Below, piece by piece: positions 1,194 to 51,014 of a stretch of DNA of 64,000 nucleotides (position 1 is its first letter; each line of letters opens with the position of its first letter). The notes below the pieces were generated by a model. That model searched no databases. It was not told the DNA's origin and saw only the letters and a list, made by a program, of their open reading frames with translations. The translations under genes and the position numbers were made by a program. The DNA is from Limnothrix sp. BL-A-16 (lineage in GTDB: Bacteria > Cyanobacteriota > Cyanobacteriia > CACIAM-69d): NCBI GenBank assembly GCA_041937175.2, contig CP166615.1:2560001-2624000 (forward strand), given 5' to 3'.

Positions 1194-1355
1194 GGTTGAT
1201 TCTCACACCTTCAATCAAAAAACAGTTAAAAGGATGACTAGCGAGCATTAATCATGAATTGAACCAGCAATTGAGCAAAATACGAATCGAGACACCTATT
1301 AAAAATCAATTAATTTACTAACTTTAAATAAAGCTCGAATTGAGTCATGTTTTCA

Positions 1356-1486
1356 GAGGATGTCTGAAAAGTGTCTTTTGGCACGGGCAATGCACCAATA
1401 GTCTTGGGGGCAAGGGGCTTAAGCCCCTTGTCTTCGTCGATCGATGGGGCGTGCAGAGTATCGATTTTGGCTTTTCAGACATCCTC
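1356..1486. mobile_element. MITE with 16-bp TIRs and TCA target duplication (IS5/IS1031-like ends)
   Basis: GAGGATGTCTGAAAAG (1356-1371) and CTTTTCAGACATCCTC (1471-1486) are perfect inverted repeats; TCA at 1353-1355 and 1487-1489. Confidence 0.8.
1411..1430. repeat. REP-like palindrome CAAGGGGCTTAAGCCCCTTG
   Basis: Perfect 20-bp palindrome; related copies at 3463, 17930, 22474, 52610, 52681. Confidence 0.85.
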
Positions 1487-2065
1487 TCAGGGCGATCGGT
1501 GGGTGGATTGGATGGATTGTGACGGATCAGCAGCATCGGCAATAGGCCATTGATGATCAGTTGCCAGGTCAGGAGAATGCTGCAACAAATCCAAGGGCGA
1601 TCGATTCAAGGCGCGATAGGTTTCGTCCTGGTTGAGCAGTTGCAAGGTTTCGATCGCCTCCTCCACCGCTCGCGAAGAAATCGTCAGTAACTGCACAATT
1701 CGTAGTCGTCGATAGACCGGATCGTATTGCGCCAACAGGGTTCGGGCCCGTCGAGCATCTAGCCACCGCCACAGGCCATAACCCAGCGATCCAATCCAGG
1801 CGATCGGCACACCCAACACAATTGCAAACCCCAAGAGGGGCCAAGGGGAATTGAGAAAGAACGGTGCGATCGCAAAGAGAATCAAACCCAGCAAGATTTC
1901 TCCCAGGGCCGTGAGTAACCAACGTTGCCAGGTTTGAAGCGGCCAGCGCCGCCAGCGTCGTTTCATGGCTACCTTGCCCATCGCCTGTGCAATGGCATGT
2001 TGAATCGCCGGTTTCGATGTGCTGAGAAGTTGGGTGATTGCTCGATCGTAGCCAGCGATGCCCAC
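1487..2065 (-). CDS. hypothetical membrane protein (start uncertain)
   Basis: ORF with two hydrophobic segments (LGEILLGLILFAIAPFFL; LLGFAIVLGVPIAWIGSLGYGLW). Confidence 0.55.
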   Translation of the reverse strand: MGIAGYDRAITQLLSTSKPAIQHAIAQAMGKVAMKRRWRRWPLQTWQRWLLTALGEILLGLILFAIAPFFLNSPWPLLGFAIVLGVPIAWIGSLGYGLWRWLDARRARTLLAQYDPVYRRLRIVQLLTISSRAVEEAIETLQLLNQDETYRALNRSPLDLLQHSPDLATDHQWPIADAADPSQSIQSTHRSP

Positions 2066-2230
2066 GATTGCCCAGCGTTTGATCGATCGACCTATTGATC
2101 GACCGATCGATCGGCCTTGGGATTTACATCACCGGGGCCACGAAGCCGATCGACCTTGGCAAAATGAAATGAGCTGCCCCAGTTTCCGGGCCAGTAGCCG
2201 CATCGATCCACCCTCACCCCCCGATCGCCC

Positions 2231-3403
2231 TTGAACTCCCTGCTCACCGACCTGACCAAACTTCGCCCCCACTTGCGATCGCGCCTGTTGCTATCTCACC
2301 TGCTGGTGGTTTTCCTCAGCATCGGTAGCTTTGCGTTGGTGGGTTGGTTTTCGTCCCCCAAAACCTTTGTTTGGAAGCTGGATGAGCTGGAGGTGCGGGG
2401 GTTTCGGTTGCGCTATGCCCGCACGCAACTGGTGAACAGTTTTGGGTTTGTGTTGCAGCAAAGCACTCTTTGGTCAGCGCTGGTGGGGGCCACGGCGGCA
2501 GGGGCCTTTAGCTATTGGGCGGCTTTGCGGATTGCACGGCCCCTGAAGCATATGGAAGAGGTGACTGTACGGTTTGCCTCGGGGGAACTGGATGCCCGCA
2601 TCCAAGCCAGTGATATTCCAGAACTAAATCAGTTGGGCAGTAGTTTCAACCGTTTGGCCACGAGCTTGGAGGGCACGGAGCAGCGCCGCCGGGATTTGAT
2701 CAGCGACCTGACCCATGAACTGCGCACACCGCTGACGGTGGTGAGGGGCTATCTCGAAGAACTGAGTGAAGGGCGGATTGATCCCACGCCGGATTTGTTC
2801 GATCGCCTGATTCGCGAAACCAAACGGCTGGAGCGACTGGTGAGCGACACTCAAGAGCTATCGCGGGCAGAAACGGGCTATTTACCGATTCATGTGCAGT
2901 CGATCGACCTGCGGCCACTGTTGGAATCAATCATCAACCGCATTGCCGATCAGGTGTTTGATGATGAACCGAGGTTAATTCTCGACTGCCCGGCGGTCCT
3001 GCCGCTGGTGGCCGCCGATCCCGATCGGGTGGAACAGGTGTTGCTGAATCTGATGGGCAATGCCTTACGCCACACCACCTGTGGCTCAATTCGCCTTTGG
3101 GCCAGTCCCAAGGATGAACGCGCCCTTTGGGTGGGGGTCACGGATACGGGGGAAGGCATTTCTGAGGAAGATTTGCCCCATGTGTTTGAGCGATTTTGGC
3201 GTGCCGATCGCAGTCGTTGCCGCCATGAGGGCCGCCAATCCGCTGGCGTGGGGATTGGGCTATCCATTTCCCGGCGATTGGTGGAGCTTCAGGGGGGTGA
3301 AATGGAGGTGACCAGCGAGCTAGGCAAGGGCAGCACGTTTCAATTCAGCCTCCCGATCGCGATCGGGAGCGAGAAACTTCAGAAAAACATCGAAACAAAT
3401 TAG
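2231..3403 (+). CDS. membrane sensor histidine kinase (HAMP-HisKA-HATPase)
   Basis: Two TM segments, HAMP, H-box HELRTPL, N-box NLMGNA, DTGEG, G2 GIGL. Confidence 0.95.
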   Translation: MNSLLTDLTKLRPHLRSRLLLSHLLVVFLSIGSFALVGWFSSPKTFVWKLDELEVRGFRLRYARTQLVNSFGFVLQQSTLWSALVGATAAGAFSYWAALRIARPLKHMEEVTVRFASGELDARIQASDIPELNQLGSSFNRLATSLEGTEQRRRDLISDLTHELRTPLTVVRGYLEELSEGRIDPTPDLFDRLIRETKRLERLVSDTQELSRAETGYLPIHVQSIDLRPLLESIINRIADQVFDDEPRLILDCPAVLPLVAADPDRVEQVLLNLMGNALRHTTCGSIRLWASPKDERALWVGVTDTGEGISEEDLPHVFERFWRADRSRCRHEGRQSAGVGIGLSISRRLVELQGGEMEVTSELGKGSTFQFSLPIAIGSEKLQKNIETN

Positions 3404-3462
3404 CAGTAGTAGCATGACAGGCTTAATACATTGGGTCGAAGTTGCGGAGCCAGTCGTGGTAA

Positions 3463-3482
3463 CAAGGGGCTTGAGCATCTTG
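3463..3482. repeat. degenerate REP-like palindrome copy
   Basis: caaggggcttgagcatcttg with shared flanking sequence on the minus strand. Confidence 0.55.
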
Positions 3483-3665
3483 CTGCCTAACGATTTGGTG
3501 ACGGTAACAGCCATGTAATTTAACCCAGTGAATTAGGGCAGCCACGCTAGTAGAAACATCCAGAAAACTTGAACCCCTCTCCCCAGCCCGAGCGATCGCC
3601 CAGGTAATCACACCAGTCATCGCCCAAATAATTGCCCAAATAATTGCCCCAGCAATGATCAGAAA

Positions 3666-4292
3666 CTATTCCACCTCGCGCCGACCTTCGAGGGCCTTCG
3701 CCAAGGTAACCTCATCGGCATATTCCAACTCACCCCCCACGGGCAACCCAAATGCAATTCTGGTCACCTTGGTAAAGGGCTTCAGGAGTTGAGACAGATA
3801 AAGGGTGGTGGTTTCCCCTTCAATGCTGGGCCCGATCGCCAAAATTACCTCATGGGTCTTTTCGCGATGCACCCGCTGCACCAGGGGCTGAATCGTCAGG
3901 CTTTCGGGGCCAATGCCATCCATAGGGGAAATGACTCCGCCCAAGACGTGGTAGCGCCCACGATATTCACGAGTGCGCTCGATCGCAATCAGATCCCGCG
4001 AGTCCGCCACCACACAGATCGTCTGTTGATCGCGGTTCGGGTTGCTGCAAACCTCGCAAACCGGCTCCGCCGAGAGGTGATAGCAAACCTGACAATGGCC
4101 CACCTGTTGCTTGGCATCCAGCAGCGCTTGGGCAAGGGTTTGAATTTCCGCCTCCGGGCGATTCAACAGATACAGCGCCAACCGCTGGGCAGATTTAGGG
4201 CCAATGCCCGGTAGCCGTTGCAATTGCTCAATTAATCGAGCCAAAGGACGAGTATAAACAGCACACCTCCTGCGCTGCGCCGCGTAAGGCAC
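3666..4292 (-). CDS. recR: recombination mediator RecR (start at GTG 4292 or non-canonical GTT 4259)
   Basis: [14 protein letters not shown]4 zinc finger [36 protein letters not shown]. Confidence 0.97.
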
Positions 4293-30461: not shown

Positions 30462-32510
30462 CTAACGAGCCGCCCGTAGTCCACCGCTCGGCAAGAAGGC
30501 CATCGGGTTCACTGCGCCTTTGCCCGATGGGCGAATTTCAAAGTGCAGGTGGGGGCCAGTGCTGCGACCAGTGCTGCCCATTTCTGCAATCAGTTGACCT
30601 TGGCGGACGGTTTGACCAGCCCGTACCAAAAGACGGCTGTTGTGGGCATAGCGAGTGAGGCTGCCATCCGGGTGGCGAATATCCACCTTGTTACCGTAGC
30701 CACCGCTGTCCCAACCGGAAGTTGCCACCACGCCGTCAGCCGCAGCCACAACCGGTGTACCCACAGGGGCTGCAATATCAATGCCTCGGTGCATCCGGCC
30801 CCAGCGCCAGCCATAGCCGGAAGTCAGAATGCCTTGGCTCGGCCAGATGTAGCCGCGCATGGTCTGGGGTTGTGCGCCCGGTAGGTAAGCTGAAGGATCC
30901 GACAGGGGCGGCAGTTGCGGCGAAACACTGGCATTGAGCAGCGTTTGCACACGGGGATTACGAGCATTCAGCGGTTCGGAGGCGGCTGCAATCAGTTGGC
31001 TGCGGCGCGGATCCGCCTCCGGCATCGGTTGGCTCAGGGCTAGCGGACGATCGCTCAGGGGCGCAGAGGGCGGTTGCACAGCCACGGTTGCCGCTTGATT
31101 AGCCACGGTGTTGGCTTGGCTGGCGGCCACGGCGGTGGCAGCGGCCGGAGCCAACAGGCTGATGGCACCGCTGCGGCTTGATTCGCCGGTTTGGTTTTGG
31201 TAGCGAGCTTGCAGGGCCTGAATTTCAGCTCGCAGACCGTCAATGTAGGGGCTATAGCGTGGGCTGGCTAGGTCGCTGTTTGCTGTTCCCTGTTGAAGGC
31301 GGCTGCTGGCGGTGGGCACGTCGGCAGCGCCGGCCAGGGATTGAGCGGTGGCCGCATGGCTCAGAAGATTGACAGCGCCACCGCCGGCTTCTTCCGTTGC
31401 AACCGTGCGGGCGGCCGCGGCACTCACGGGGACAGCCGGGCGATCGAGCCGCTGCGTGGGAACTGCAACGGCCGTGAGTCGATAATCAGCGGCGGTGGGG
31501 ATGCTAACCACCAGGTCGTTGGCAGTGGGAGTGACCGCATCTACAGAAGCACGCTCGGCCGTAGTCGCCGATTGCAGTGCAACGGTTTCTTCGGTGCGAT
31601 CGGTCGTGGGAACCTCTGCTGATTCAGTGGTTGGTTGCGGCTCCAGGGCCAGCAGTTCGATCGCCTCAGTGGTGGAACCCAGCAGGTTTCCGGTATTCGC
31701 CGCCAGAGACTCCAAGGCTTGGCTCAATCGTTGGCTTTGGGCCTGCAAGCGATCAATGCTCCGGATGGCAGCAGCATCGGCCAGCAGGTCGATCGTGTTG
31801 GGCGAAGAAGGGGCTTCTGCGGCGGGAATTTCAGTCACAGCAGGACTGTTGGCGCTAGCCGACTCGGCAACAGTGGCCGAAGCGTCAATCACAACGGACG
31901 CTTCCGGTGCAACCGCAGCCACTTCAACCTGGTTGTCCGGGAGGGCTGGAATCCGGCTGCGATCGAGGGTGATTGCTGTGGTCTGGCTGTCGGCTTCGCT
32001 TTCGCCATGGGCCAGGGAGGCGGAAAATTGCTCGGAATTCGCTTCAGCCGTTGTTTGACTCGTTTCGACGGTGGGCGCGCTCAAGGTCGCCGTTTCCACT
32101 TCGGCGGTGATTGGCTCGATCGCGCTAACAACGGTGCGTTGGGGAATGCTGCGGGCTGGAATGGTGAGTTGTTGACCAGCGCTCAGGACAGCATCAATCG
32201 ACAGGTGGTTCGCCGCCGCCAGGGCTTCAGGCGCAACATCGTATTGACGGGCGATGGTCGCGATCGTGTCGTTGGCTTGAACCGTGTGGGTCTTGCTGGT
32301 GGCCGCCGCCACGGCTTGGCTACTGAGGGACGGAGCCTGGTTGGGTTCTGCCGCAATCGCGTGGTCGCCTTGGCGGGGCAACAGCAACCCTGTTGCACCC
32401 ATTGAGATTGCCAACCCTAGCGTCGCGATCGAGGCGCGGGTCTTCCGACTAGTCTCCGTGGGAGCTTGTTGGTACTGTTCGGTCATCGCACGATGTGGAT
32501 TGTTGGTCAT
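30462..32510 (-). CDS. LysM + M23 peptidoglycan DD-metalloendopeptidase (NlpD-like)
   Basis: N-terminal LysM (HTVQANDTIATIARQY), C-terminal HRGID...YAH...GPHLHFE. Confidence 0.92.
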   Translation of the reverse strand: MTNNPHRAMTEQYQQAPTETSRKTRASIATLGLAISMGATGLLLPRQGDHAIAAEPNQAPSLSSQAVAAATSKTHTVQANDTIATIARQYDVAPEALAAANHLSIDAVLSAGQQLTIPARSIPQRTVVSAIEPITAEVETATLSAPTVETSQTTAEANSEQFSASLAHGESEADSQTTAITLDRSRIPALPDNQVEVAAVAPEASVVIDASATVAESASANSPAVTEIPAAEAPSSPNTIDLLADAAAIRSIDRLQAQSQRLSQALESLAANTGNLLGSTTEAIELLALEPQPTTESAEVPTTDRTEETVALQSATTAERASVDAVTPTANDLVVSIPTAADYRLTAVAVPTQRLDRPAVPVSAAAARTVATEEAGGGAVNLLSHAATAQSLAGAADVPTASSRLQQGTANSDLASPRYSPYIDGLRAEIQALQARYQNQTGESSRSGAISLLAPAAATAVAASQANTVANQAATVAVQPPSAPLSDRPLALSQPMPEADPRRSQLIAAASEPLNARNPRVQTLLNASVSPQLPPLSDPSAYLPGAQPQTMRGYIWPSQGILTSGYGWRWGRMHRGIDIAAPVGTPVVAAADGVVATSGWDSGGYGNKVDIRHPDGSLTRYAHNSRLLVRAGQTVRQGQLIAEMGSTGRSTGPHLHFEIRPSGKGAVNPMAFLPSGGLRAAR

Positions 32511-41014: not shown

Positions 41015-41189
41015 TAGACCTCTTGCATCAATCAAAACCCTCACCCTAAATCCCTCTCCCAAGTCAGGAGAGGGACTTGACAACCAACAGCGAAATCGCC
41101 GTTATTCTCGATTTCTGGCTCCCCTTCGCCCTCCTTGGGAGAAGGGGTTGGGGGATGAGGGCTGTTAGCTGATTCGCGCAAGAGGTCTA
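41015..41189. mobile_element. MITE with TA-flanked TIRs (IS630-like ends) and nested inverted repeats
   Basis: TAGACCTCTTGC (41015-41026) / GCAAGAGGTCTA (41178-41189); internal ccctcaccctaaatccctctcccaa vs ttgggagaaggggttgggggatgaggg. Confidence 0.8.
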
Positions 41190-41483
41190 GTGCCGCAAAA
41201 CCCATTCTGAGACTAGAATTTTCAGCCTTTGCCTCAGCCCCTGCCGGTGACCTCGCAAAGCCTGTCGCAAGACCCAGGCTCGATCGGTCTTTAAGCCACC
41301 AAACAGCACAGGATTATCTTTATCGATCGCCTCATGCCAAATTTGTGCAATTTTGACTTTGACTTATTTAATCCAGTTTTTGATCCCGACAGTTTTTGTT
41401 TATAAGTCTTGTGATTTAACTTTTTGATCACTTAAGTTGATTGCAGTTGGGTCGCACGTCTACTCTTGCTCGGTGGCATCATC

Positions 41484-44400
41484 ATGTCGGACTCTATCTT
41501 TGGCTTGCCTGAATTTGTAGAACCCACTCCTTTGGGCGTTGTACCCACTTCACAGCCAACGATCGACCTCAGCCGACTGTTGCCACCTGTCCTGGCCAAT
41601 GGCCTTTCCACCAGCGAGCGGTTGGAACAAATCCAGCAATTACAAACCGGTAGCCTCACGGATCCCATCCTAGGTTCCAACCCACAAGCCACGGTTCCAG
41701 CAGGCCGCACCCAAAATGTGCGCCGTAACCCCGCGTTGGGCAACGGCACATCCACGCCAACCGGCGATGGCGGACTGGGCGGAACAGCTTCACCGATCGA
41801 CCCCTTGACCGGTGACTCACTGGATGACTCATCCACCACAGCGGATGGCAGCACTGGGGCGATCGAGCCAAAGCCCGCCCTGACCAGCCTGTCCACCGCC
41901 CCCACGTCCCCCGACATTCAGTTCACCTCCGGCGCTTTCACGGCCCTGAGCGCAACAGCCAGCGTTGAATTTCAATGGGATGGTGGCGGCTATAGCAATA
42001 CTCAGTTAGGCATTTTTTCCCTGGAAGGCATGGAGCAATTCACGGGCGATGCCTTCCACCGAGAAGCCGCCCGCCGCGCCACCACCAACTCCCCCACCGG
42101 CCACCTGCTGATTGACGATCGCACCGAAGGCGCAAAGTTCAGCGGCAAACTGAATCACGAAGACAACTTCAACCAAGGCCCCTTCAACGGAGTCAAAACC
42201 TTCAGCATCACTCCCGGGGCCAAATATGGCTTGATCCTGATTCCCGATGGAAAACTGGCGGACATCGCCACGGGCGCAGCCCAGGCGGAGGGGTCGCGCC
42301 GTCCGCTCTATTCCATGGCCACCGCCAACCCGGATCAGCTTTTCCAAGCTGGGCAGTTGGTGGAAGTGGGTTCAGACCCAACCCGGGGCAACACCTACGT
42401 TTTTGAAGATTTACGCCTCGATCAAGGAAGCGATCGGGACTACAACGATATCGTCGTGCGGTTGCGTGGGTTTAGTGGCTCTGTCCCCTCGATCGACCAA
42501 TACATCGACTCCAACAAAGATTGGCGCAAGGAAGAAGCTGGCAAGCTGTTGTTAGCCGATGCCTTGCCCTACGTCACCGTTGAGCCATCGCAACCAGCCC
42601 CCAGCGCTCCCACCCCTAGTCCTAGTCCCGCTCCTGGCAACGATCCATCCAGCAGCACAACCACCCCACCAACCCCAGCCCCCGGCCCAACGCCGCCCAA
42701 CACGGAACCCCCAGCCCCCAGCACTCCAGTGCCCAGCACTACGCCTGTTATTTCACCGCTGGGCACTTTCCCCTGGACTTACCCAACGCCTGAGGATCTG
42801 GCAGCCGCAGCCATCACACCCGCCAGCAAATTCCCGATCGTTGGGGTGATCGACACGGGGTTTGCCCGCAGCAACCCGGATTTGGACTACAGCAAAATCG
42901 TTTGGGGCAAGGACTACATCGACAACGATGCCGATCCGCTGCTGAATCCCGGCGAGGGCAACGAACATGGCACCCACATTCTGGGTCTGATCTCCGCCCT
43001 CCGCAACAATGGTGTGGGGATTGATGGCCTCGCACCCGATGCGCCAATTTGGGCGGCGCGGGCCGTGGGTTCGGGCAACTGGGCCAAAGCCTTGGTTGAT
43101 TACGTGGATTACATCAAGAGCAAGGGTCAAACCCGTGGGTTGGTGAACCTGAGCTTTGACCTGACCCAAAAGAACGCCGACGGGACGATTTCGACGCGCT
43201 ACGAGTTCACCCCAGAAGAGCGGGTGGCGATCGAGACAGCTCGCCAAGCGGGCGTCATCTTAGTTGTGGCGGCGGGCAACAGTGGCACGGGGGATATGTC
43301 CGTGTTGGCTCAGGCGGCTCAGGAGTTTGACAACATCATTTCGGTGGCGGCGGCGGAACAGATCGATCGCTCGGTGGCGATCGCTGATGGAGCGGCCAAA
43401 ACCGACTATTCCAGCAGTGGCAAAAAGCTAACCCTCAGTGCGATCGGCGGGACGATCGAGCAGGGGATTCCATCGCTGCTGGCAGAAGGGCTAGGCACGA
43501 TGGCGGGCACGTCGGTTGCCACAGCGAAGGTGACGGCGAATGCGGCTCTGGCGTGGGCGGCGAATCCCAGCCTGAACTATCTGCAAGTCAAGGATGTTCT
43601 GACCAAAACAGCGACCGACATCGAAGCCCCTGGCTACGACGAGCTGACGGGGTATGGGATCGTCAATGGCGCAGCGGCAATTTCTTTGGCCAAAATGACG
43701 AAGGGCGAAACCTACAACCCTGAGCCTTGGTTTGCGCCGGATAGTTGGAGCGGCGAAGGATTTGCAACCCCTTGGGAACGCGAAGTAGCAGCCCTAGATT
43801 CCTACGCGATCAGGTCTAACCCAAGTAGCTCTGGATACATGGGGCTGTTTTTGTACGATGCCCGATGGTATCAAATGTCTGCTGAAGCTATTGAGCGTGA
43901 TGACGTAAGGCGCAATTTCCTAGGCTACTCCCATGCCACTTTTCGTACTTTTGTAGATTTCGTACCGCCTAGGATTAGCAATGATATTAGGTTAGTGCCT
44001 GTTGCTTACCATGCAGGAGTTCCCTACAAGTGGACAACCAAGAGTACAAGTACCCTAAAAGCCGAGTTAGGACGTGACCCCACTTTTGATGATCTCGTAC
44101 GGATTGCTAGACCGGATTTAGTTCCCGGGGATCCAGCCTATGCTGCGTTCGAGCTTTTCCTAGTACGACAGCACAAGGCACGTCCCGTAAGTACAACAGG
44201 AACGGGTCGGACAGGGGTTTTATCATCATCCCCGCTGGTCTATATTCCTCAGCCCTGGACGGAGCTAGCTAACTTTGCCACGCTAGTTCCTGACACTATC
44301 AGCCTCGCGAACAGCGCCTATGCTAAAAACGGTGGCTCTAGCACTTTAGGATCACCAGTATCCGGTCAAGGTTTAGGTAAATTCGACTCGCAAATCTACT

Positions 44401-47400
44401 CATCCTTGACAGTCAAGTCTCAAGTGTTGACTGGTGGTTCAGAAGGGGCAGGTGCACTGGTTTTAAACAGAGCCGAGAGTGAGGCCTTCTGGCTCAGAGG
44501 AGATTTCTTCATCGGTCAGTATATGATTGGTGCAGCCAACTTTGGACTGCCCACTTCGGATCGATACAAGTTTGGAAGTGGTGAGCGACAAGACTTTGAG
44601 ACAGGCGCTGTTTTTTATACAGGCTCTTCTTTCACTACCTTGCTTGGTCAGGCAGGAAGTTATTATCAAAAAACGCTGACGAACGCCCAGCGTAACCAAC
44701 TGGGTATGCTGACTGGATCAGCAGTTTTCTCCAATGGGCAATTTACTTACCCCTTCGCTGGTGGCAGCCTAAAGTACAGCTCGTCGGGCGTATTCTCCAT
44801 CGAGTTTAACTGGACAAATTATCCTTCCGTAGCTGCTGGTAACTGGACGGGTACAGGATCAGTACGTCTGCAAAATCCGCCTCAACCTGGGACGATGGCT
44901 GGTTTACCCAATACAGCAGGTGCTTATCAATACAGCACTAGAAGTGCCAACGGTGCGATCGCCCACTATTACGCGAATGGCAACCTTCAGCAACAACCCA
45001 ACAGCGCCAAGATCTACTGGTATCAAATACCGGGCACTACCCAGTTGTCATCAACCAACCCCATTACTACACCAACATCAACCAAACTCACTCCTGCTTC
45101 AGTACTCTTCGATCAGCCTGTCATCAGCTATGAGAGTAACGCGCCAGCATCACTCAATCTTTATTCAAGTCTCAAGCAAGGAAGTTTGAGCAGCACCAAC
45201 CCTGACGACCTGTTCTATTTTGATGTTACGAAGCCTGGCGAGTATATTCAGTGGAACGCCAAAACATTGTCTGGCAATCTCAGGATGCAAATTATTCGGG
45301 ATGCCAACAATAACAACCTTTTGGATGCTAACGAAACAGTCAAGACAATTTCTCTAGGCTCCAATAGCAGCCAATCGATGACTTTTGAGGACAAGGGACG
45401 TTACTATATTCGTCTTTTGCCTGAATCTGGAAGTTCAGCAAGCTACCAGTTGAGTGCGATCGGCTCGCCTTACCGCCCCCTTCATCACGGCGCTGACTTC
45501 AACCGTGACGGGCTAACCGATTTTGCGTACCAAGGAAAAGGAGCTGGCAACAATAGTGCAAGCGTATTTACCTATGGTGCTGCTGGGATCGGCAAATTCA
45601 CTGATCTTCGTAATGATCTTGAGGGTAGTCGTGTCAACTTGATTTGGGGTGACTTTAATGGCGATCGTCGCCCAGACTACATCCGGCAGGAAAAAGCAGA
45701 TTGGGCAACTTGGAACAATAGCAACAATACAAGCAACATTAATGGAAACAACACTACTGAAAACAACACTGAATTGTGGCTAGCTGGTGCTGATGGCAAG
45801 AGTTTTTACGAGGAGCGGGATCTAGAGGCAGCGACTGGTAGTAGCTTCAATGGCAATTTTGTAAACCTCATCCCTGGCGATTTCAATGGCGATGGGAAAA
45901 CAGACTTCATCCGCCAAGAAAAAAGTGACTGGGATAACCATGGCAGTCGCGATGCCGAAGTGTGGCTCAATACGGGTGCTGTTGACTTCAAAATGGTTCA
46001 CAGCCTGACTTTCAATGGCGATGGATTTAAGGGTGATTACGTCAACCTCATCCCTGGCGACTTTGATGGTGACGGCCGGACAGATTTTATCCGACAGGAG
46101 AAAAATAACTGGGATGACGATGGAAGCAACACAGCCGTTGTGTTTCTGTCTAATGGCAATGGCCAGTTTCGTCAGGGAGCCGTTCTCAATAACTCCGAAA
46201 ATGATCTGCGGGGAGATTTTACGAATCTAATCCCCGGTGACTTCAATGGTGATGGAAAAACAGACTTCATTCGTCAGGAAAAGAATACCTGGGATGACGA
46301 TGAAGGTCGTACCGCCGAAGTCTGGCTATCCAATGGAGGTATGAGTCAATTCACTCGTGTTTCAACTCCTCTCCGCCATGATGGTGATGACTTCAAGGGT
46401 AGTTTCGTCAATATTATTCCCGGTGACTTCAATGGCGACGGGCGCACTGATATCCTGCGCCAGAAGTTTGGCCCACGAGATCAGGACAACCATCGAACAG
46501 CAGAAATTTTTCTGTCAAATGGAGATGGGACGTTCAGCAAAAATCCCCAATTGATTCAGTATGGGAATAACTATTTCAAAGGAACCTCCACCAACATTTT
46601 GACGGGCGCACTGGGCGGTACTGCTCCATTTTACGAACATACAGACAGCAGGAGTGGCTGGGTTGTTGAGTATCATGGCTGGCCTAGCAATCGTCCCAAA
46701 CCTGTGGATTTAGGGTGGGATCGTGATGATGTTCTTGGATCGACGCGGCTTGATTCCAATATCCGTTCAGATGGTAAGCGTGGCTTCCAGATGGATTGGG
46801 GACATGATGCGCCGGATGCGCGAGTTCCTAATGATCAGTTTGCGATGCGTGCCTATACTCAATACAGCTTTGAGGCAGGTAAGACCTATGTGGCAAAGGT
46901 GAAAGCAGATGATGGTTATCGTCTCTTTGCCAAACATATTGGCACGAACAAATGGGAAAACTTCATGGCCGATGGATTCCGTAAAGATGCTTACGGAGCG
47001 CACAAAGAAATTCAGTTTACTGTGCCGCAGTCGGGTACCTATGACTTCCACTTCGAGTTCTATGATGACACCAGCGATGCCTACTTCGATTTAACAATTG
47101 ATGAGGCTTCTCGTGTAGAAAACTACTACCCTAACATCGAGTCAACACTCATCGAGTTCTTTGGAAATCGTGCCAATACAAATGGCGAAGATTGGTCTCA
47201 AAGGAGCATTGACACAATGTGGGATCGTATTTCTGGTGAGAGTGCTCAGTTTGGAACCAGAGCGAGTAGTTTCTATGATTCTGGAGATATTTGGCAGCAG
47301 GATTCGCCTGAGGATATTTTGAGAATTTATGACGATCTTTCTCGGGATATTCTAGGGTCTGTTAAGCCTCTGACCACGGGCTATGCCTATGACAGAGGAT

Positions 47401-48338
47401 ACTACTCAGCGTATGGTGCTCATTCTGGCTTGGATATTGATACCATTCGTGGAGATGTAATTCGATCTGCAACACGAGGAAAGTTCGCTTTTGCCAAGCA
47501 CTATCAGTCTCCTGGGAATCCCAACGGTTGGTGGATTGCAATTGACGAGATAGATGCTAATGATGCAAGAACTGGACGGCGCTGGTGGTACGGACACCTT
47601 GGTAGCTCTCGCTTCTCATCTGTTGGGGAAATCATTGAGCGTGGAACTGTGATTGGAGATGCTGGCGACGAGAGTGGCTATGCAAACCATCTTCATCTTA
47701 TGGTGGTGAATACATACGGAGACCCACCAACTTCTTGGAATGAGGCGGTTAACGGGACAGGACGTGGTTATGCAGGAGATGTACAAAACGTCCTAGAACG
47801 AACCATGAGCCCACTCCAAGCTTACTGGGAGTCTCGCAATGAGAATGGGCAACCTCCTGGTAACAATATTCAAGTGCCTAGTAGTGGAACTGTCAGTCAA
47901 GCAGGTTTAGAGTTCATTGCTCGGCATGAAGGTCTACGATTGGATCTGTACAACGATCCTGCAGGACATTGCACAATTGGTGTTGGTCATCTAGTTCATC
48001 GAGGTAACTGCAACGGCAGTGAATCAACAGAGTTTCGGAACGGAATTACAAGAGACCGTGCCCTTGATCTTCTGAACCAAGATGCTAGTGGCGCAGCCAA
48101 CACCGTCCGCCAGTACGTAACTGTGCCTTTGAATCAGAATCAGTTTGATGCTTTGGTCAGCTTTGTTTTTAATGTGGGATCGGGTAACTTTCAAGCATCC
48201 AATCTCTTAATACGTTTGAACCAAGGAGAGTATAGTGCTGTTCCTTCAGAGCTCAATCGTTGGAATAAGGCTGGTGGTGTGGTACTACCAGGCTTAGTTA
48301 CACGCCGGAAGGAAGAAGGCGATCTCTTTACCAGCTAG
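41484..48338 (+). CDS. giant multidomain protein: DUF4114 - S8 subtilase - LGFP-like - PPC - FG-GAP repeats - PA14 - M23 peptidase - GH24 lysozyme
   Basis: FEDL..DRDYNDIVV; IDTG/HGTH/AAGN/GTS; GDFNGDGKTD repeats; DWG..P..F..R..ADDG; HSGLD..HLH; HEGLRLDLYNDPAGHCTIGVG..NQFDALVSF..GLVTRR. Confidence 0.9.
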   Translation: MSDSIFGLPEFVEPTPLGVVPTSQPTIDLSRLLPPVLANGLSTSERLEQIQQLQTGSLTDPILGSNPQATVPAGRTQNVRRNPALGNGTSTPTGDGGLGGTASPIDPLTGDSLDDSSTTADGSTGAIEPKPALTSLSTAPTSPDIQFTSGAFTALSATASVEFQWDGGGYSNTQLGIFSLEGMEQFTGDAFHREAARRATTNSPTGHLLIDDRTEGAKFSGKLNHEDNFNQGPFNGVKTFSITPGAKYGLILIPDGKLADIATGAAQAEGSRRPLYSMATANPDQLFQAGQLVEVGSDPTRGNTYVFEDLRLDQGSDRDYNDIVVRLRGFSGSVPSIDQYIDSNKDWRKEEAGKLLLADALPYVTVEPSQPAPSAPTPSPSPAPGNDPSSSTTTPPTPAPGPTPPNTEPPAPSTPVPSTTPVISPLGTFPWTYPTPEDLAAAAITPASKFPIVGVIDTGFARSNPDLDYSKIVWGKDYIDNDADPLLNPGEGNEHGTHILGLISALRNNGVGIDGLAPDAPIWAARAVGSGNWAKALVDYVDYIKSKGQTRGLVNLSFDLTQKNADGTISTRYEFTPEERVAIETARQAGVILVVAAGNSGTGDMSVLAQAAQEFDNIISVAAAEQIDRSVAIADGAAKTDYSSSGKKLTLSAIGGTIEQGIPSLLAEGLGTMAGTSVATAKVTANAALAWAANPSLNYLQVKDVLTKTATDIEAPGYDELTGYGIVNGAAAISLAKMTKGETYNPEPWFAPDSWSGEGFATPWEREVAALDSYAIRSNPSSSGYMGLFLYDARWYQMSAEAIERDDVRRNFLGYSHATFRTFVDFVPPRISNDIRLVPVAYHAGVPYKWTTKSTSTLKAELGRDPTFDDLVRIARPDLVPGDPAYAAFELFLVRQHKARPVSTTGTGRTGVLSSSPLVYIPQPWTELANFATLVPDTISLANSAYAKNGGSSTLGSPVSGQGLGKFDSQIYSSLTVKSQVLTGGSEGAGALVLNRAESEAFWLRGDFFIGQYMIGAANFGLPTSDRYKFGSGERQDFETGAVFYTGSSFTTLLGQAGSYYQKTLTNAQRNQLGMLTGSAVFSNGQFTYPFAGGSLKYSSSGVFSIEFNWTNYPSVAAGNWTGTGSVRLQNPPQPGTMAGLPNTAGAYQYSTRSANGAIAHYYANGNLQQQPNSAKIYWYQIPGTTQLSSTNPITTPTSTKLTPASVLFDQPVISYESNAPASLNLYSSLKQGSLSSTNPDDLFYFDVTKPGEYIQWNAKTLSGNLRMQIIRDANNNNLLDANETVKTISLGSNSSQSMTFEDKGRYYIRLLPESGSSASYQLSAIGSPYRPLHHGADFNRDGLTDFAYQGKGAGNNSASVFTYGAAGIGKFTDLRNDLEGSRVNLIWGDFNGDRRPDYIRQEKADWATWNNSNNTSNINGNNTTENNTELWLAGADGKSFYEERDLEAATGSSFNGNFVNLIPGDFNGDGKTDFIRQEKSDWDNHGSRDAEVWLNTGAVDFKMVHSLTFNGDGFKGDYVNLIPGDFDGDGRTDFIRQEKNNWDDDGSNTAVVFLSNGNGQFRQGAVLNNSENDLRGDFTNLIPGDFNGDGKTDFIRQEKNTWDDDEGRTAEVWLSNGGMSQFTRVSTPLRHDGDDFKGSFVNIIPGDFNGDGRTDILRQKFGPRDQDNHRTAEIFLSNGDGTFSKNPQLIQYGNNYFKGTSTNILTGALGGTAPFYEHTDSRSGWVVEYHGWPSNRPKPVDLGWDRDDVLGSTRLDSNIRSDGKRGFQMDWGHDAPDARVPNDQFAMRAYTQYSFEAGKTYVAKVKADDGYRLFAKHIGTNKWENFMADGFRKDAYGAHKEIQFTVPQSGTYDFHFEFYDDTSDAYFDLTIDEASRVENYYPNIESTLIEFFGNRANTNGEDWSQRSIDTMWDRISGESAQFGTRASSFYDSGDIWQQDSPEDILRIYDDLSRDILGSVKPLTTGYAYDRGYYSAYGAHSGLDIDTIRGDVIRSATRGKFAFAKHYQSPGNPNGWWIAIDEIDANDARTGRRWWYGHLGSSRFSSVGEIIERGTVIGDAGDESGYANHLHLMVVNTYGDPPTSWNEAVNGTGRGYAGDVQNVLERTMSPLQAYWESRNENGQPPGNNIQVPSSGTVSQAGLEFIARHEGLRLDLYNDPAGHCTIGVGHLVHRGNCNGSESTEFRNGITRDRALDLLNQDASGAANTVRQYVTVPLNQNQFDALVSFVFNVGSGNFQASNLLIRLNQGEYSAVPSELNRWNKAGGVVLPGLVTRRKEEGDLFTS

Positions 48339-48347
48339 ATACGAAGC

Positions 48348-48372
48348 GGGCGATCGCCCTTGCTAGACTGGG
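48348..48372 (+). repeat. 25-bp direct repeat copy 1 (HIP1 + extended -10-like TGCTAGACT)
   Basis: gggcgatcgcccttgctagactggg; 24/25 identical to 49086-49110. Confidence 0.85.
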
Positions 48373-48413
48373 AATCGCCAGCCGATCGCCCCCACGAGAT
48401 CTGAGGCAACCCT

Positions 48414-48647
48414 ATGGCTCTGTTAACGCTGGAAATTTCCCTAGAGATTCTTTTAGAAGCGATCGCCCATTGGGATCGGAGTGATCGACTGCAACTGTGG
48501 CAATTCCTCAGTGACGATCTTTTCAGCGATGTGGAAACAGAGATCGATCGATCGCCCACCGAAGATCTCCGACAATCACTTCAGGAAATGCACTCAGGGC
48601 AAACTTTTCCCATCGAACAAATGTGGCTGGTCGTCGAAGCCAATTAA
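48414..48647 (+). CDS. putative type II antitoxin
   Basis: 77-aa acidic ORF 6 bp upstream of the RelE-like gene; LRQSLQEMHSGQTFPIEQMW. Confidence 0.7.
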   Translation: MALLTLEISLEILLEAIAHWDRSDRLQLWQFLSDDLFSDVETEIDRSPTEDLRQSLQEMHSGQTFPIEQMWLVVEAN

Positions 48648-48653
48648 CCAGCC

Positions 48654-48986
48654 ATGTCAATCGAGGTTACACCCACCTTCACGCGAAAGGTTCGCACCCT
48701 GCTTAAGCGTTATCGAAGTCTGCGCCAAGACTTACAGCCCATACTAGACCAACTCGCGCAGGGCGAACGTCCCGGTGATCGCCTCCAAGGCATGTCGCTT
48801 AACGTCTTCAAAGTACGAATTAAAAACAGTGATATTGGCAAGAGAAAAAGCGCTGGATATCGTCTGATCTATTACGCAGAATTAGCAGAACGAATTGTTC
48901 TATTAACGATTTATAGCAAAAGTGATCGCACAGATATTGGTTCGCAAGAAATTCTTGAAATTCTTCGTGAATTCGATTCGCCCTAA
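48654..48986 (+). CDS. RelE/ParE (HigB-like) type II toxin
   Basis: FKVRIKNSDIGKRKSAGYRLIYY..LLTIYSKSD. Confidence 0.85.
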   Translation: MSIEVTPTFTRKVRTLLKRYRSLRQDLQPILDQLAQGERPGDRLQGMSLNVFKVRIKNSDIGKRKSAGYRLIYYAELAERIVLLTIYSKSDRTDIGSQEILEILREFDSP

Positions 48987-50093: not shown

Positions 50094-51014
50094 ATGAAGC
50101 TTCTTAAAACGGCTCTGAGTTTGACTGCGATTGTCACCTCTTCAGTGGCCGCCTGCTTGGCAGGTTCTGCGCCAGCCCAAGCCTATCGAATGTTTTTAGG
50201 CGAAGATTTAAATTCAAACCCTTGGGCTCCAACCTCTAATCGCACCAACTCTCAGGCAGCAGAAGCCGCTTTTTTGTCAAATTTGACCGGTGTGGGTACT
50301 GAGACCTTTGAAAGTCAAATCACCGGCACTAACAATCTTCTAAATGTTTCATTTCCCGGAGCTGGAACGGCAACACTCTCGGGAAATGGTCGAATTTCAA
50401 GCGTGCCCGTGGGCTGGACAAATGGCGTTGGTCGCTATGCCGTTTCTGGGACTCAATTTTGGGAAGTGGACGCTGGGGGACACTTCACAATCAATTTCAG
50501 TCAGCAGGTGGGAGCTTTTGGGTTTTATGGGGTTGATATTGGTGATTTTGGTGGCCAATTAACCCTGACTTTGGCGGGCGCATCCACCACAAAACAGGTG
50601 ACGGTTAATAACACAATCGGCTCGTCGGGCAGCACGGATGGTTCTGTGCTGTTCTTTGGCATTATTGCGGAAACGATGGAGGAGGCGTTCAGTAGTGTTT
50701 CCTTCAGCATGTCAACGGGTCAAGGCGATGTTTTTGCCTTTGACAACATGACGGTGGGCGGTCTGTCTCAGGTCAAAACTCCGGAGCCATCCCCCCAGCC
50801 CAGTCCTGAGCCGACTCCGGAACCCAGTCCTGAACCCACTGTGACTCCGGAACCCGGCCCTAGCCCAACCCCCAGCCCCTCAGCAACTCCTACGCCGCAA
50901 CCCACGCAGCCCACGGATCCGGTGTCAGTGCCGGAGCCGGGATCGATCGGGGCCTTGTTCCTGGTGGGAGCCATGGGAGTCCTGGGTTTGGGTCGTCGTC
51001 GCCGCGCTGACTGA
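50094..51014 (+). CDS. PEP-CTERM sorting-domain surface protein
   Basis: Signal peptide ..AQA, Pro/Glu/Thr linker, VPEPGS-TM-RRRR tail. Confidence 0.92.
   Translation: MKLLKTALSLTAIVTSSVAACLAGSAPAQAYRMFLGEDLNSNPWAPTSNRTNSQAAEAAFLSNLTGVGTETFESQITGTNNLLNVSFPGAGTATLSGNGRISSVPVGWTNGVGRYAVSGTQFWEVDAGGHFTINFSQQVGAFGFYGVDIGDFGGQLTLTLAGASTTKQVTVNNTIGSSGSTDGSVLFFGIIAETMEEAFSSVSFSMSTGQGDVFAFDNMTVGGLSQVKTPEPSPQPSPEPTPEPSPEPTVTPEPGPSPTPSPSATPTPQPTQPTDPVSVPEPGSIGALFLVGAMGVLGLGRRRRAD

Follow-up and report, generated by a model that had tools for sequence, protein, structure and literature searches.

Protein P0001, encoded in a 64,000-nucleotide window of Limnothrix sp. BL-A-16 (assembly GCA_041937175.2, contig CP166615.1, positions 2,560,001 to 2,624,000), is one allele of a family that joins a carrier to a variable cargo. 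Amino acids (aa) 147–768, which hold a DUF4114 module and an S8 subtilase, are constant; the remainder, which in this allele ends in an M23 peptidase and a GH24 lysozyme, is exchangeable. The host is a cyanobacterium, and its genome (G000), to which the window belongs, is 100% complete and contains 5,209 HIP1 sites.

An initial annotation, made from the DNA letters alone, had described a giant three-enzyme protein, and this architecture was upheld. A single open reading frame (ORF) gave Pfam matches above the curated cut-off for all three enzymes (Peptidase_S8, aa 451–725; Peptidase_M23, aa 1979–2075; Phage_lysozyme, aa 2147–2278), for the DUF4114-like domain that had also been proposed (aa 243–328) and for FG-GAP_3. 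The catalytic set of the subtilase (IDTG at 456, HGTH at 495, AAGN at 596 and GTS at 675) was found at the annotated positions, and the AlphaFold model of this part has a subtilisin fold. Likewise, HSGLD at 1980 and HLH at 2069 of the M23 module and the lysozyme motif E2149-x8-D-x5-T were located where they had been placed. The M23 profile PF01551 scored 31.9–35.5 bits against a cut-off of 28.7, with both HxxxD and HxH present; a PDB sequence search with this part gave no match. The GH24 tip, for which PF00959 was above cut-off, matched GH24 lysozymes of solved structure, most closely 6et6 (E = 7e-28), and the phage endolysin family phrog_7. Of the accessory modules that had been listed, FG-GAP was recovered above cut-off and PA14 when that part was scanned alone (E = 1e-5), but PPC stayed below cut-off (E = 2e-4) and LGFP was merely faint (E = 0.04); a pairwise test of the LGFP identity of positions 44286..44873 also came out weak. 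Pfam, PHROG and Atlas searches with aa 769–935 gave no match. A single 38-residue match of this domain to a eukaryote-like repeat protein was judged spurious, and a likeness to lytic transglycosylase motifs, seen by eye, was not confirmed.

The possibility of an assembly chimera, raised in the same annotation, was checked against other assemblies and read data. P0005, from other assemblies, aligns over aa 426–2284 at 90%, and a single 24.6-kb contig of read run X12, from a clearly different strain, spans S8 through lysozyme in order. The gene is thus not chimeric.

Comparison of alleles at the locus revealed that the cargo is exchanged. L006, a contig titled Limnothrix redekei, carries the same locus in flanks 91–93% identical to the window. 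Its protein is 93% identical to P0001 over aa 1–367 and 87% over aa 426–768, and then continues into an unrelated cargo of 1,100 aa; at the DNA level, the two sequences part at 43760 and become similar again at 48353. A third allele, from run X3, diverges from the window at 43792 (aa 770), returns to it and diverges again at 47059 after PA14. In the lake runs X1 and X2, contig depth, a coarse measure, falls from ~25–30 in the flanks to 0–5 in the cargo, as expected if the population holds several alleles. Furthermore, the S8 domains of P0003–P0006 are 94–98% identical to that of the window, yet these proteins have four different cargo layouts, ending in another M23 with a further tip (P0003), a C39-like peptidase (P0004 and P0006) or the same M23-GH24 pair (P0005). 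In P0005 this pair is 99–100% identical to that of P0001, against 33% for the N-terminus. The GH24 tip is 67–70% identical to the tips of distant relatives whose S8 is only 55–57% identical; therefore, tips also move between lineages. A fixed three-enzyme machine was rejected, the M23 and GH24 combination being a rare allele (2 of the 120 listed relatives, plus L049 among the fetched loci).

Base composition and substitution patterns also separate the two parts. GC content at third codon positions is 0.67 over aa 1–768 versus 0.44 over the cargo; among 1,247 long reading frames, spurious frames included, the median is 0.66 and 4% lie below the cargo value. The carrier is under purifying selection: relative to the congener, the ratio of nonsynonymous to synonymous substitution rates (dN/dS) comes to 0.08 for the DUF4114 module and to 0.02 for the first half of S8. 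The synonymous rate climbs from 0.16–0.18 to 0.5 and reaches saturation in aa 651–768, toward the junction with the cargo, a rise that fits putative repeated crossovers within the S8 coding region. No paralogue of the carrier was found in G000 apart from one unrelated S8 gene.

A homologue search with aa 147–775, restricted to protein lengths of 1,256–3,997, returned 299 proteins at E ≤1e-30 among 7,997 scored, which is a lower bound on the number of relatives. Among the 120 best of these 299, which were listed, all named matches are cyanobacterial, with merely generic annotations, and the S8-containing alignment extends beyond residue 806 in P0003 and P0005 only. In an alignment of 100 sequences (P0001 and 99 relatives with one full S8), D457 and H495 are conserved in 100/100 and N599 and S677 in 99/100. 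Conservation continues into the motif that ends the carrier (W755 in 97, G757 in 95, G759 in 94 and R766 in 95 of the 100), and at position 770 the commonest residue occurs in 16/100. A sample of 401 genomes of the phylum yielded the carrier in 31, clustered in few families, with up to four matches per genome (five candidates scored per genome) and a strong match in one of two congeners. Five members (L049, L052, L069, L071 and L072) lack the DUF4114 module. Tandem, partly duplicated S8 blocks, two or three in number, were observed in P0008, P0009, P0011–P0022 and others.

The cargo pool is dominated by peptidoglycan hydrolases and wall-binding domains. By a hand tally, at least one of M23, CHAP, amidase_3, GH24, GH108, GH25 and GH19 occurs in 70 of the 120 listed relatives; PF01183 was entered in this tally by its family name. 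Nuclease toxin tips also occur (AHH in L002; Ntox44 in L089, P0061 and P0102), as do non-lytic cargos with lipase-family and lectin domains.

The structure of the carrier was predicted with AlphaFold. The model of aa 140–800 reached a predicted template modelling score of 0.80 in spite of the disordered linker. Its S8 part had a predicted local distance difference test score (pLDDT) of ~90 and matched subtilisins at Z ~32, with a root-mean-square deviation (rmsd) of 1.8–2.5 over 255–284 residues. The modelled S8 domain (PF00082) thus combines an intact triad and oxyanion Asn with a predicted subtilisin fold. The DUF4114 module alone was modelled at pLDDT 87, and LecB was its top match in both structure searches, albeit a weak one (Z 4.5, rmsd 3.5, 108 residues aligned; Foldseek E = 5e-3); a PDB sequence search with the module gave no match. 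When the module and S8 were folded as two chains, the docking score was 0.84, against 0.01 for the best control, with at least 87% contact agreement between runs and partner pLDDT of at least 79. Among solved complexes 116 of 157 attain this mark, compared with 2 of 215 mismatched pairs; because the fold used our own alignment, these counts apply roughly. The predicted interface joins helix 351–365 to S8 residues 630–635, 708–717 and 726–738, none of them catalytic; therefore, the module looks like a docked accessory rather than a cap. A role as active-site cap or propeptide was accordingly rejected, as some members also lack the module.

We next consider export, for which the family offers a recurring pair of genes. 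Many relatives begin with a basic stretch followed by F(I/V)LEPILTPSG, and two genes recur next to carriers, one for an HlyD-type adaptor and one for an M50-like membrane protease whose HExxH is intact. The M50 gene was found in 28/401 genomes: 23 have both it and the carrier, eight (including G000) the carrier only and five the M50 gene only. In the fetched loci, stretches of up to 20 kb, the leader is present in 29 of 59 carrier frames, and 20 of these 29 have an M50 or adaptor gene within the stretch. None of the 30 leaderless carrier frames has either gene within its stretch (5/30 are cut by a contig end, and several are split frames). No p-value is attached to this link because the genomes are related and the co-occurrence counts are not independent. 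The exporter neighbours match NF041824, a daptide leader protease, below its cut-off (E = 1e-37 to 1e-43). LEPILTPS may resemble the LEPRxLL motif; an NCBIfam search of three leader-bearing relatives, with E up to 1 allowed, did not bring up the LEPR-XLL profile, and P0001 has no such motif.

As the initial annotation had noted, no conventional secretion signal accompanies P0001. A motif scan of the protein detected no hydrophobic signal, no membrane stretch and no GGxGxD repeat, and the downstream genes (RelN-like, RelE-like and Uma2) include neither an exporter nor a recognisable immunity gene. The missing GGxGxD and a C-terminus that differs from allele to allele set P0001 apart from RTX and classical type I substrates. 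The genes of G000 were examined for an exporter: four ordinary M50 genes and nine HlyD-family genes were present, none of the cassette type. Any of the nine HlyD-family genes could serve export of P0001. The leader is present in none of the 8 carriers from M50-negative genomes; an alternative route is suggested by the repeated appearance of leaderless carriers in other lineages. In a quick, midpoint-rooted carrier tree (154 of 179 rows), the leaderless clade comprises eight rows (support 100, branch 0.53) and groups with leader-bearing paralogues from the same organism family (support 90, internally unresolved), a topology that would be compatible with loss of the leader.

Several relatives add to this picture. 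Two loci (L092:7506–13742 and L100:11300–17935) hold giants with DUF4114 and a calpain-family domain (Peptidase_C2) next to the M50/adaptor pair; these giants would form a second class of substrate. A leaderless subtype that opens with a PPC domain (L044, L045, L053, L056 and similar) never lies beside the exporter in the fetched loci, and this domain is a possible second export signal. In the same-genus genome G002, a paralogue (L002:6723–13433, minus strand) adjoins the M50/adaptor pair; it lacks the catalytic Ser and the junction motif, contains a stretch resembling an HExxH metallopeptidase and has an AHH nuclease at its end. This exporter-linked paralogue was not found in G000.

We lean, with slightly better than even confidence, towards the reading that P0001 is an exported, sheath-tethered, self-processed and immunity-free polymorphic bacteriolysin acting on exposed peptidoglycan. 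The protein would exit the cell without a periplasmic stage. In leader-bearing relatives the neighbouring M50-protease and HlyD-adaptor pair is the likely exporter; for the leaderless P0001, candidate routes are vesicles, lysis or a different adaptor system encoded in the genome. The lectin-like module may then retain the protein on sheath or biofilm polysaccharide, and the subtilase may cut at or near the conserved junction to free the cargo. Such self-cleavage is suggested by the conservation and position of the junction motif, and L002, whose S8 has no catalytic serine, also has no junction motif, which counts for it. Once freed, M23 and GH24 would cut the cross-links and glycan of exposed peptidoglycan, in monoderm neighbours or damaged cells. 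In a diderm cell, the producer's own peptidoglycan is out of reach for a wall hydrolase that avoids the periplasm. The producer, with its wall behind the outer membrane, would thus need no immunity gene for lytic cargos. New cargo would arrive through homologous recombination, with crossovers in the S8 coding region on one side and in the downstream flank on the other. An extracellular, possibly self-processing bacteriolytic weapon, as first proposed from the sequence, would fit this scheme.

Several observations weigh against the bacteriolysin reading. P0001 has no leader, no M50/adaptor pair of the cassette type was found in G000, and the exporter counts come from related genomes. Cargo of seven close alleles, searched in G000 at E 1e-6, found nothing elsewhere in the genome that would represent an orphan cassette. 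No peptidoglycan-hydrolase match was found in 50 of the 120 listed relatives, some of them partial records, or in the cargo of the congener L006. From aa 758 the junction residues have pLDDT under 50; because the model places them without confidence, the motif may be merely the structural end of the carrier. The model did not show the junction docked in the active site with confidence, which does not count against cleavage. The junction motif is missing from about six of the 100 aligned relatives, each with an intact triad. No immunity-gene candidate recurs downstream in 28 loci, where toxin-antitoxin modules, Uma2, transposases and unrelated genes prevail, and behind the Ntox44 tip of L089 no suitable ORF of at least 60 aa was present. 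Shielding by the outer membrane does not explain nuclease cargos without immunity.

Other functions were weighed on the same evidence. The lectin-like anchor and the intact general subtilisin fold would also suit a sheath-anchored scavenging exoenzyme, in which a general protease and hydrolases digest dead walls and protein for nitrogen and phosphorus, with no killing and no specific self-cleavage; the lipase-family and lectin cargos and the absence of immunity genes from the loci examined point the same way. We nevertheless regard scavenging as unlikely, since fast allele turnover at one locus and nuclease tips suit conflict better than nutrition, and conservation breaks off sharply just past the motif following the protease. 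Wall remodelling, the housekeeping alternative offered in the initial annotation, fared worse, and cargo variability argues against it. Self-directed remodelling of wall or sheath, in filament breakage, separation cells or hormogonium release, would draw on the concentration of the family in few families of the class (16/26 and 6/6), on named matches that are mostly filamentous genera, and on M23, amidase_3 and LysM as established remodelling domains. However, the protein has no Sec signal for reaching the periplasm, its presence is patchy (one of two congeners strongly; 31/401 genomes), a constant self substrate should not favour swapped enzymes, and the genome already has ordinary LysM-M23 genes (e.g. 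window 30462–32510), which makes this role quite improbable.

We give least credence to the idea that P0001 is a stranded copy that lost its leader and exporter and is now cytoplasmic, acting only upon lysis as a released weapon or lysis aid, or decaying. Strong purifying selection speaks against this idea, as do the 99–100% identity of M23-GH24 in P0005 despite its 33% identical N-terminus and the recurrence of leaderless carriers in other lineages (8/8 in exporter-negative genomes). What makes such stranding conceivable is the absent leader, the exporter pair not found in G000 and the long branch (0.53) of the leaderless clade next to leader-bearing, exporter-linked paralogues of the same organism family.

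The features of the gene and its downstream flank are collected in the table.

Table. Features of the P0001 gene and its downstream flank (window positions)
Feature	Position	Strand	Remarks
Whole gene P0001	41484..48338	+	Single stop-free ORF, 2,284 aa
Low-complexity N-terminus, aa 1–146	41484..41921	+	Signal peptide and LEPILTPS leader both absent
DUF4114 module, aa 147–367	41922..42584	+	Beta-sandwich; top structural match, a weak one, to the calcium lectin LecB/PA-IIL; predicted S8 docking
Disordered Pro/Thr-rich linker, aa 368–445	42585..42818	+	
S8 subtilase, aa 446–740	42819..43703	+	Intact triad (D457/H495/S677) and oxyanion N599
Junction motif P.xWSGEGxxTPxER(A)(V/A), aa 752–768	43737..43787	+	Conserved carrier end; candidate processing site
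First cargo domain, aa 769–935	43788..44288	+	Among alleles compared, common to P0003 and P0005 only
Degenerate LGFP-like region	44286..44873	+	Faint match only
PPC-like domain	45207..45416	+	Under Pfam cut-off
FG-GAP repeats, five stretches	45489..46628	+	Pfam
PA14 domain	46629..47138	+	Second allele switch point at its end (47059)
M23 metallopeptidase module	47181..47843	+	HxxxD 1980, HxH 2069
GH24 phage-type lysozyme tip	47889..48335	+	E2149-D2158-T2164
Conserved downstream flank	48353..48631	+	Congener identity resumes; likely right-hand anchor of cargo exchange; RelN-like antitoxin ORF 48414–48647

Downstream of the gene, window positions 48414–48986 encode a RelN-like antitoxin and a RelE/ParE-like toxin, and Uma2 also lies downstream; near the same place the congener has a PIN-domain module instead. 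The small downstream ORFs were considered as immunity genes and set aside as this toxin-antitoxin pair. In L044 (12214–12588), a 125-aa ORF without a Pfam match lies behind a carrier having an SLT domain and a further tip, and may encode an immunity protein. Upstream of the gene, positions 41015–41190 hold a 176-bp element resembling a miniature inverted-repeat transposable element, with terminal inverted repeats, which could affect the promoter; G000 contains 16 near-full copies, and the element is absent here in L006 and runs X1–X3. The LysM-M23 gene at 30462–32510 lies on the minus strand and is likely a housekeeping counterpart. At 50094–51014 (plus strand), a signal-peptide protein has a Pro-rich linker and a weak PEP-CTERM match, and similar genes occur near carriers in several loci. 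Sigma-factor-like and DUF1822 genes stand divergent from the carrier in two genomes, at L008 (6647–8452) and L042 (1986–3540), and a related pair is found elsewhere in G000.

To our knowledge, the protein weapons of free-living cyanobacteria have been little studied. The carrier family is a concrete candidate for the means by which filamentous cyanobacteria influence the bacteria around them; if true, the weapon system would allow cyanobacteria of mats, crusts and blooms to prune their heterotrophic neighbours. The family is directly testable, offering a predicted cleavage junction and a natural allele series, and also amounts to a large natural collection of wall-lytic domain combinations. 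In addition, it names enzymatic substrates for the ABC-less M50/HlyD machine, so far noted bioinformatically, and its leaderless copy raises the question of how a wall hydrolase of 245 kDa gets out of a diderm cell with no signal.

All individual domains are known, and the family-level system appears undescribed. A literature search, whose scope ended short of the supplements of PMC3482391 and of the paper defining S8-PTS, where these architectures may be listed, found no description of the family. More tentatively, and short of an even chance in our estimate, the family may constitute an undescribed, immunity-free weapon of filamentous cyanobacteria: a lectin-tethered, self-cutting subtilase with swappable cargos, lytic or nuclease, whose single-step export would be carried out by an ABC-less M50/HlyD machine that reads LEPILTPS, with a leader-independent second route here.

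Individual parts of the system have counterparts elsewhere. In polymorphic toxin systems, subtilisin is listed among the processing peptidases (Zhang et al., 2012, PMC3482391). Like those toxins, the family has a constant N-terminal part, an embedded peptidase and a variable C-terminal effector at one locus, with AHH and Ntox44 tips in some members. It differs in that the cargo is a multi-domain block of 500–1,500 aa swapped at several levels, and that no adjacent cognate immunity genes or orphan toxin cassettes were found; in PMC3482391, the passages on subtilisin, cyanobacterial, Microcoleus and Lyngbya contain no account of such an architecture. ABC-less loci of M50 peptidase and HlyD, with secondary SecA_DEAD, have been reported (Kamneva et al., 2015, PMC4452313). 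There too an M50-like membrane protease adjoins an HlyD adaptor and the ABC pump is absent, but the string 'cyanobacteri' appears nowhere in the main text of that article and no substrate is named in the portion consulted, whereas here the pair adjoins S8 carriers and DUF4114-calpain giants.

Giant proteins with LEPRxLL domains are mentioned in another source (10.64898/2026.03.19.712371). In predatory Omnitrophota, N-terminal S8 or C39 peptidases have been proposed to cut a large wall-degrading polyprotein (10.1101/2023.11.21.568195); those giants are far larger and membrane-rich and come from predators, and DUF4114 is absent from that text. Modules of DUF4114/LecB type, such as that of Myxococcus PilY1.1, have been proposed to bind polysaccharide (PMC9109919). 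The module described here shares their conserved EDxxxDxxxDxDYND calcium loop and, putatively, sugar binding, but it spans ~220 aa, is predicted to dock on the protease and is missing from some family members.

The closest functional parallel comes from Firmicutes, in which S8-PTS loci of three genes encode a separate Sec-secreted S8 peptidase, a BetaH-fused toxin and a cytosolic immunity protein (10.1101/2025.07.24.666436). Proteolytic toxin release by S8, demonstrated in that system, is a precedent for S8 activation. Both systems couple an S8 peptidase to a variable antibacterial domain, and P0001, like S8-PTS, would be diffusible. In contrast to S8-PTS, P0001 carries its S8 in cis, in a diderm cyanobacterial host, with no Sec signal, no immunity gene and a mostly wall-lytic family cargo. 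P0001 thus falls outside S8-PTS, but would work like an S8-activated polymorphic toxin.

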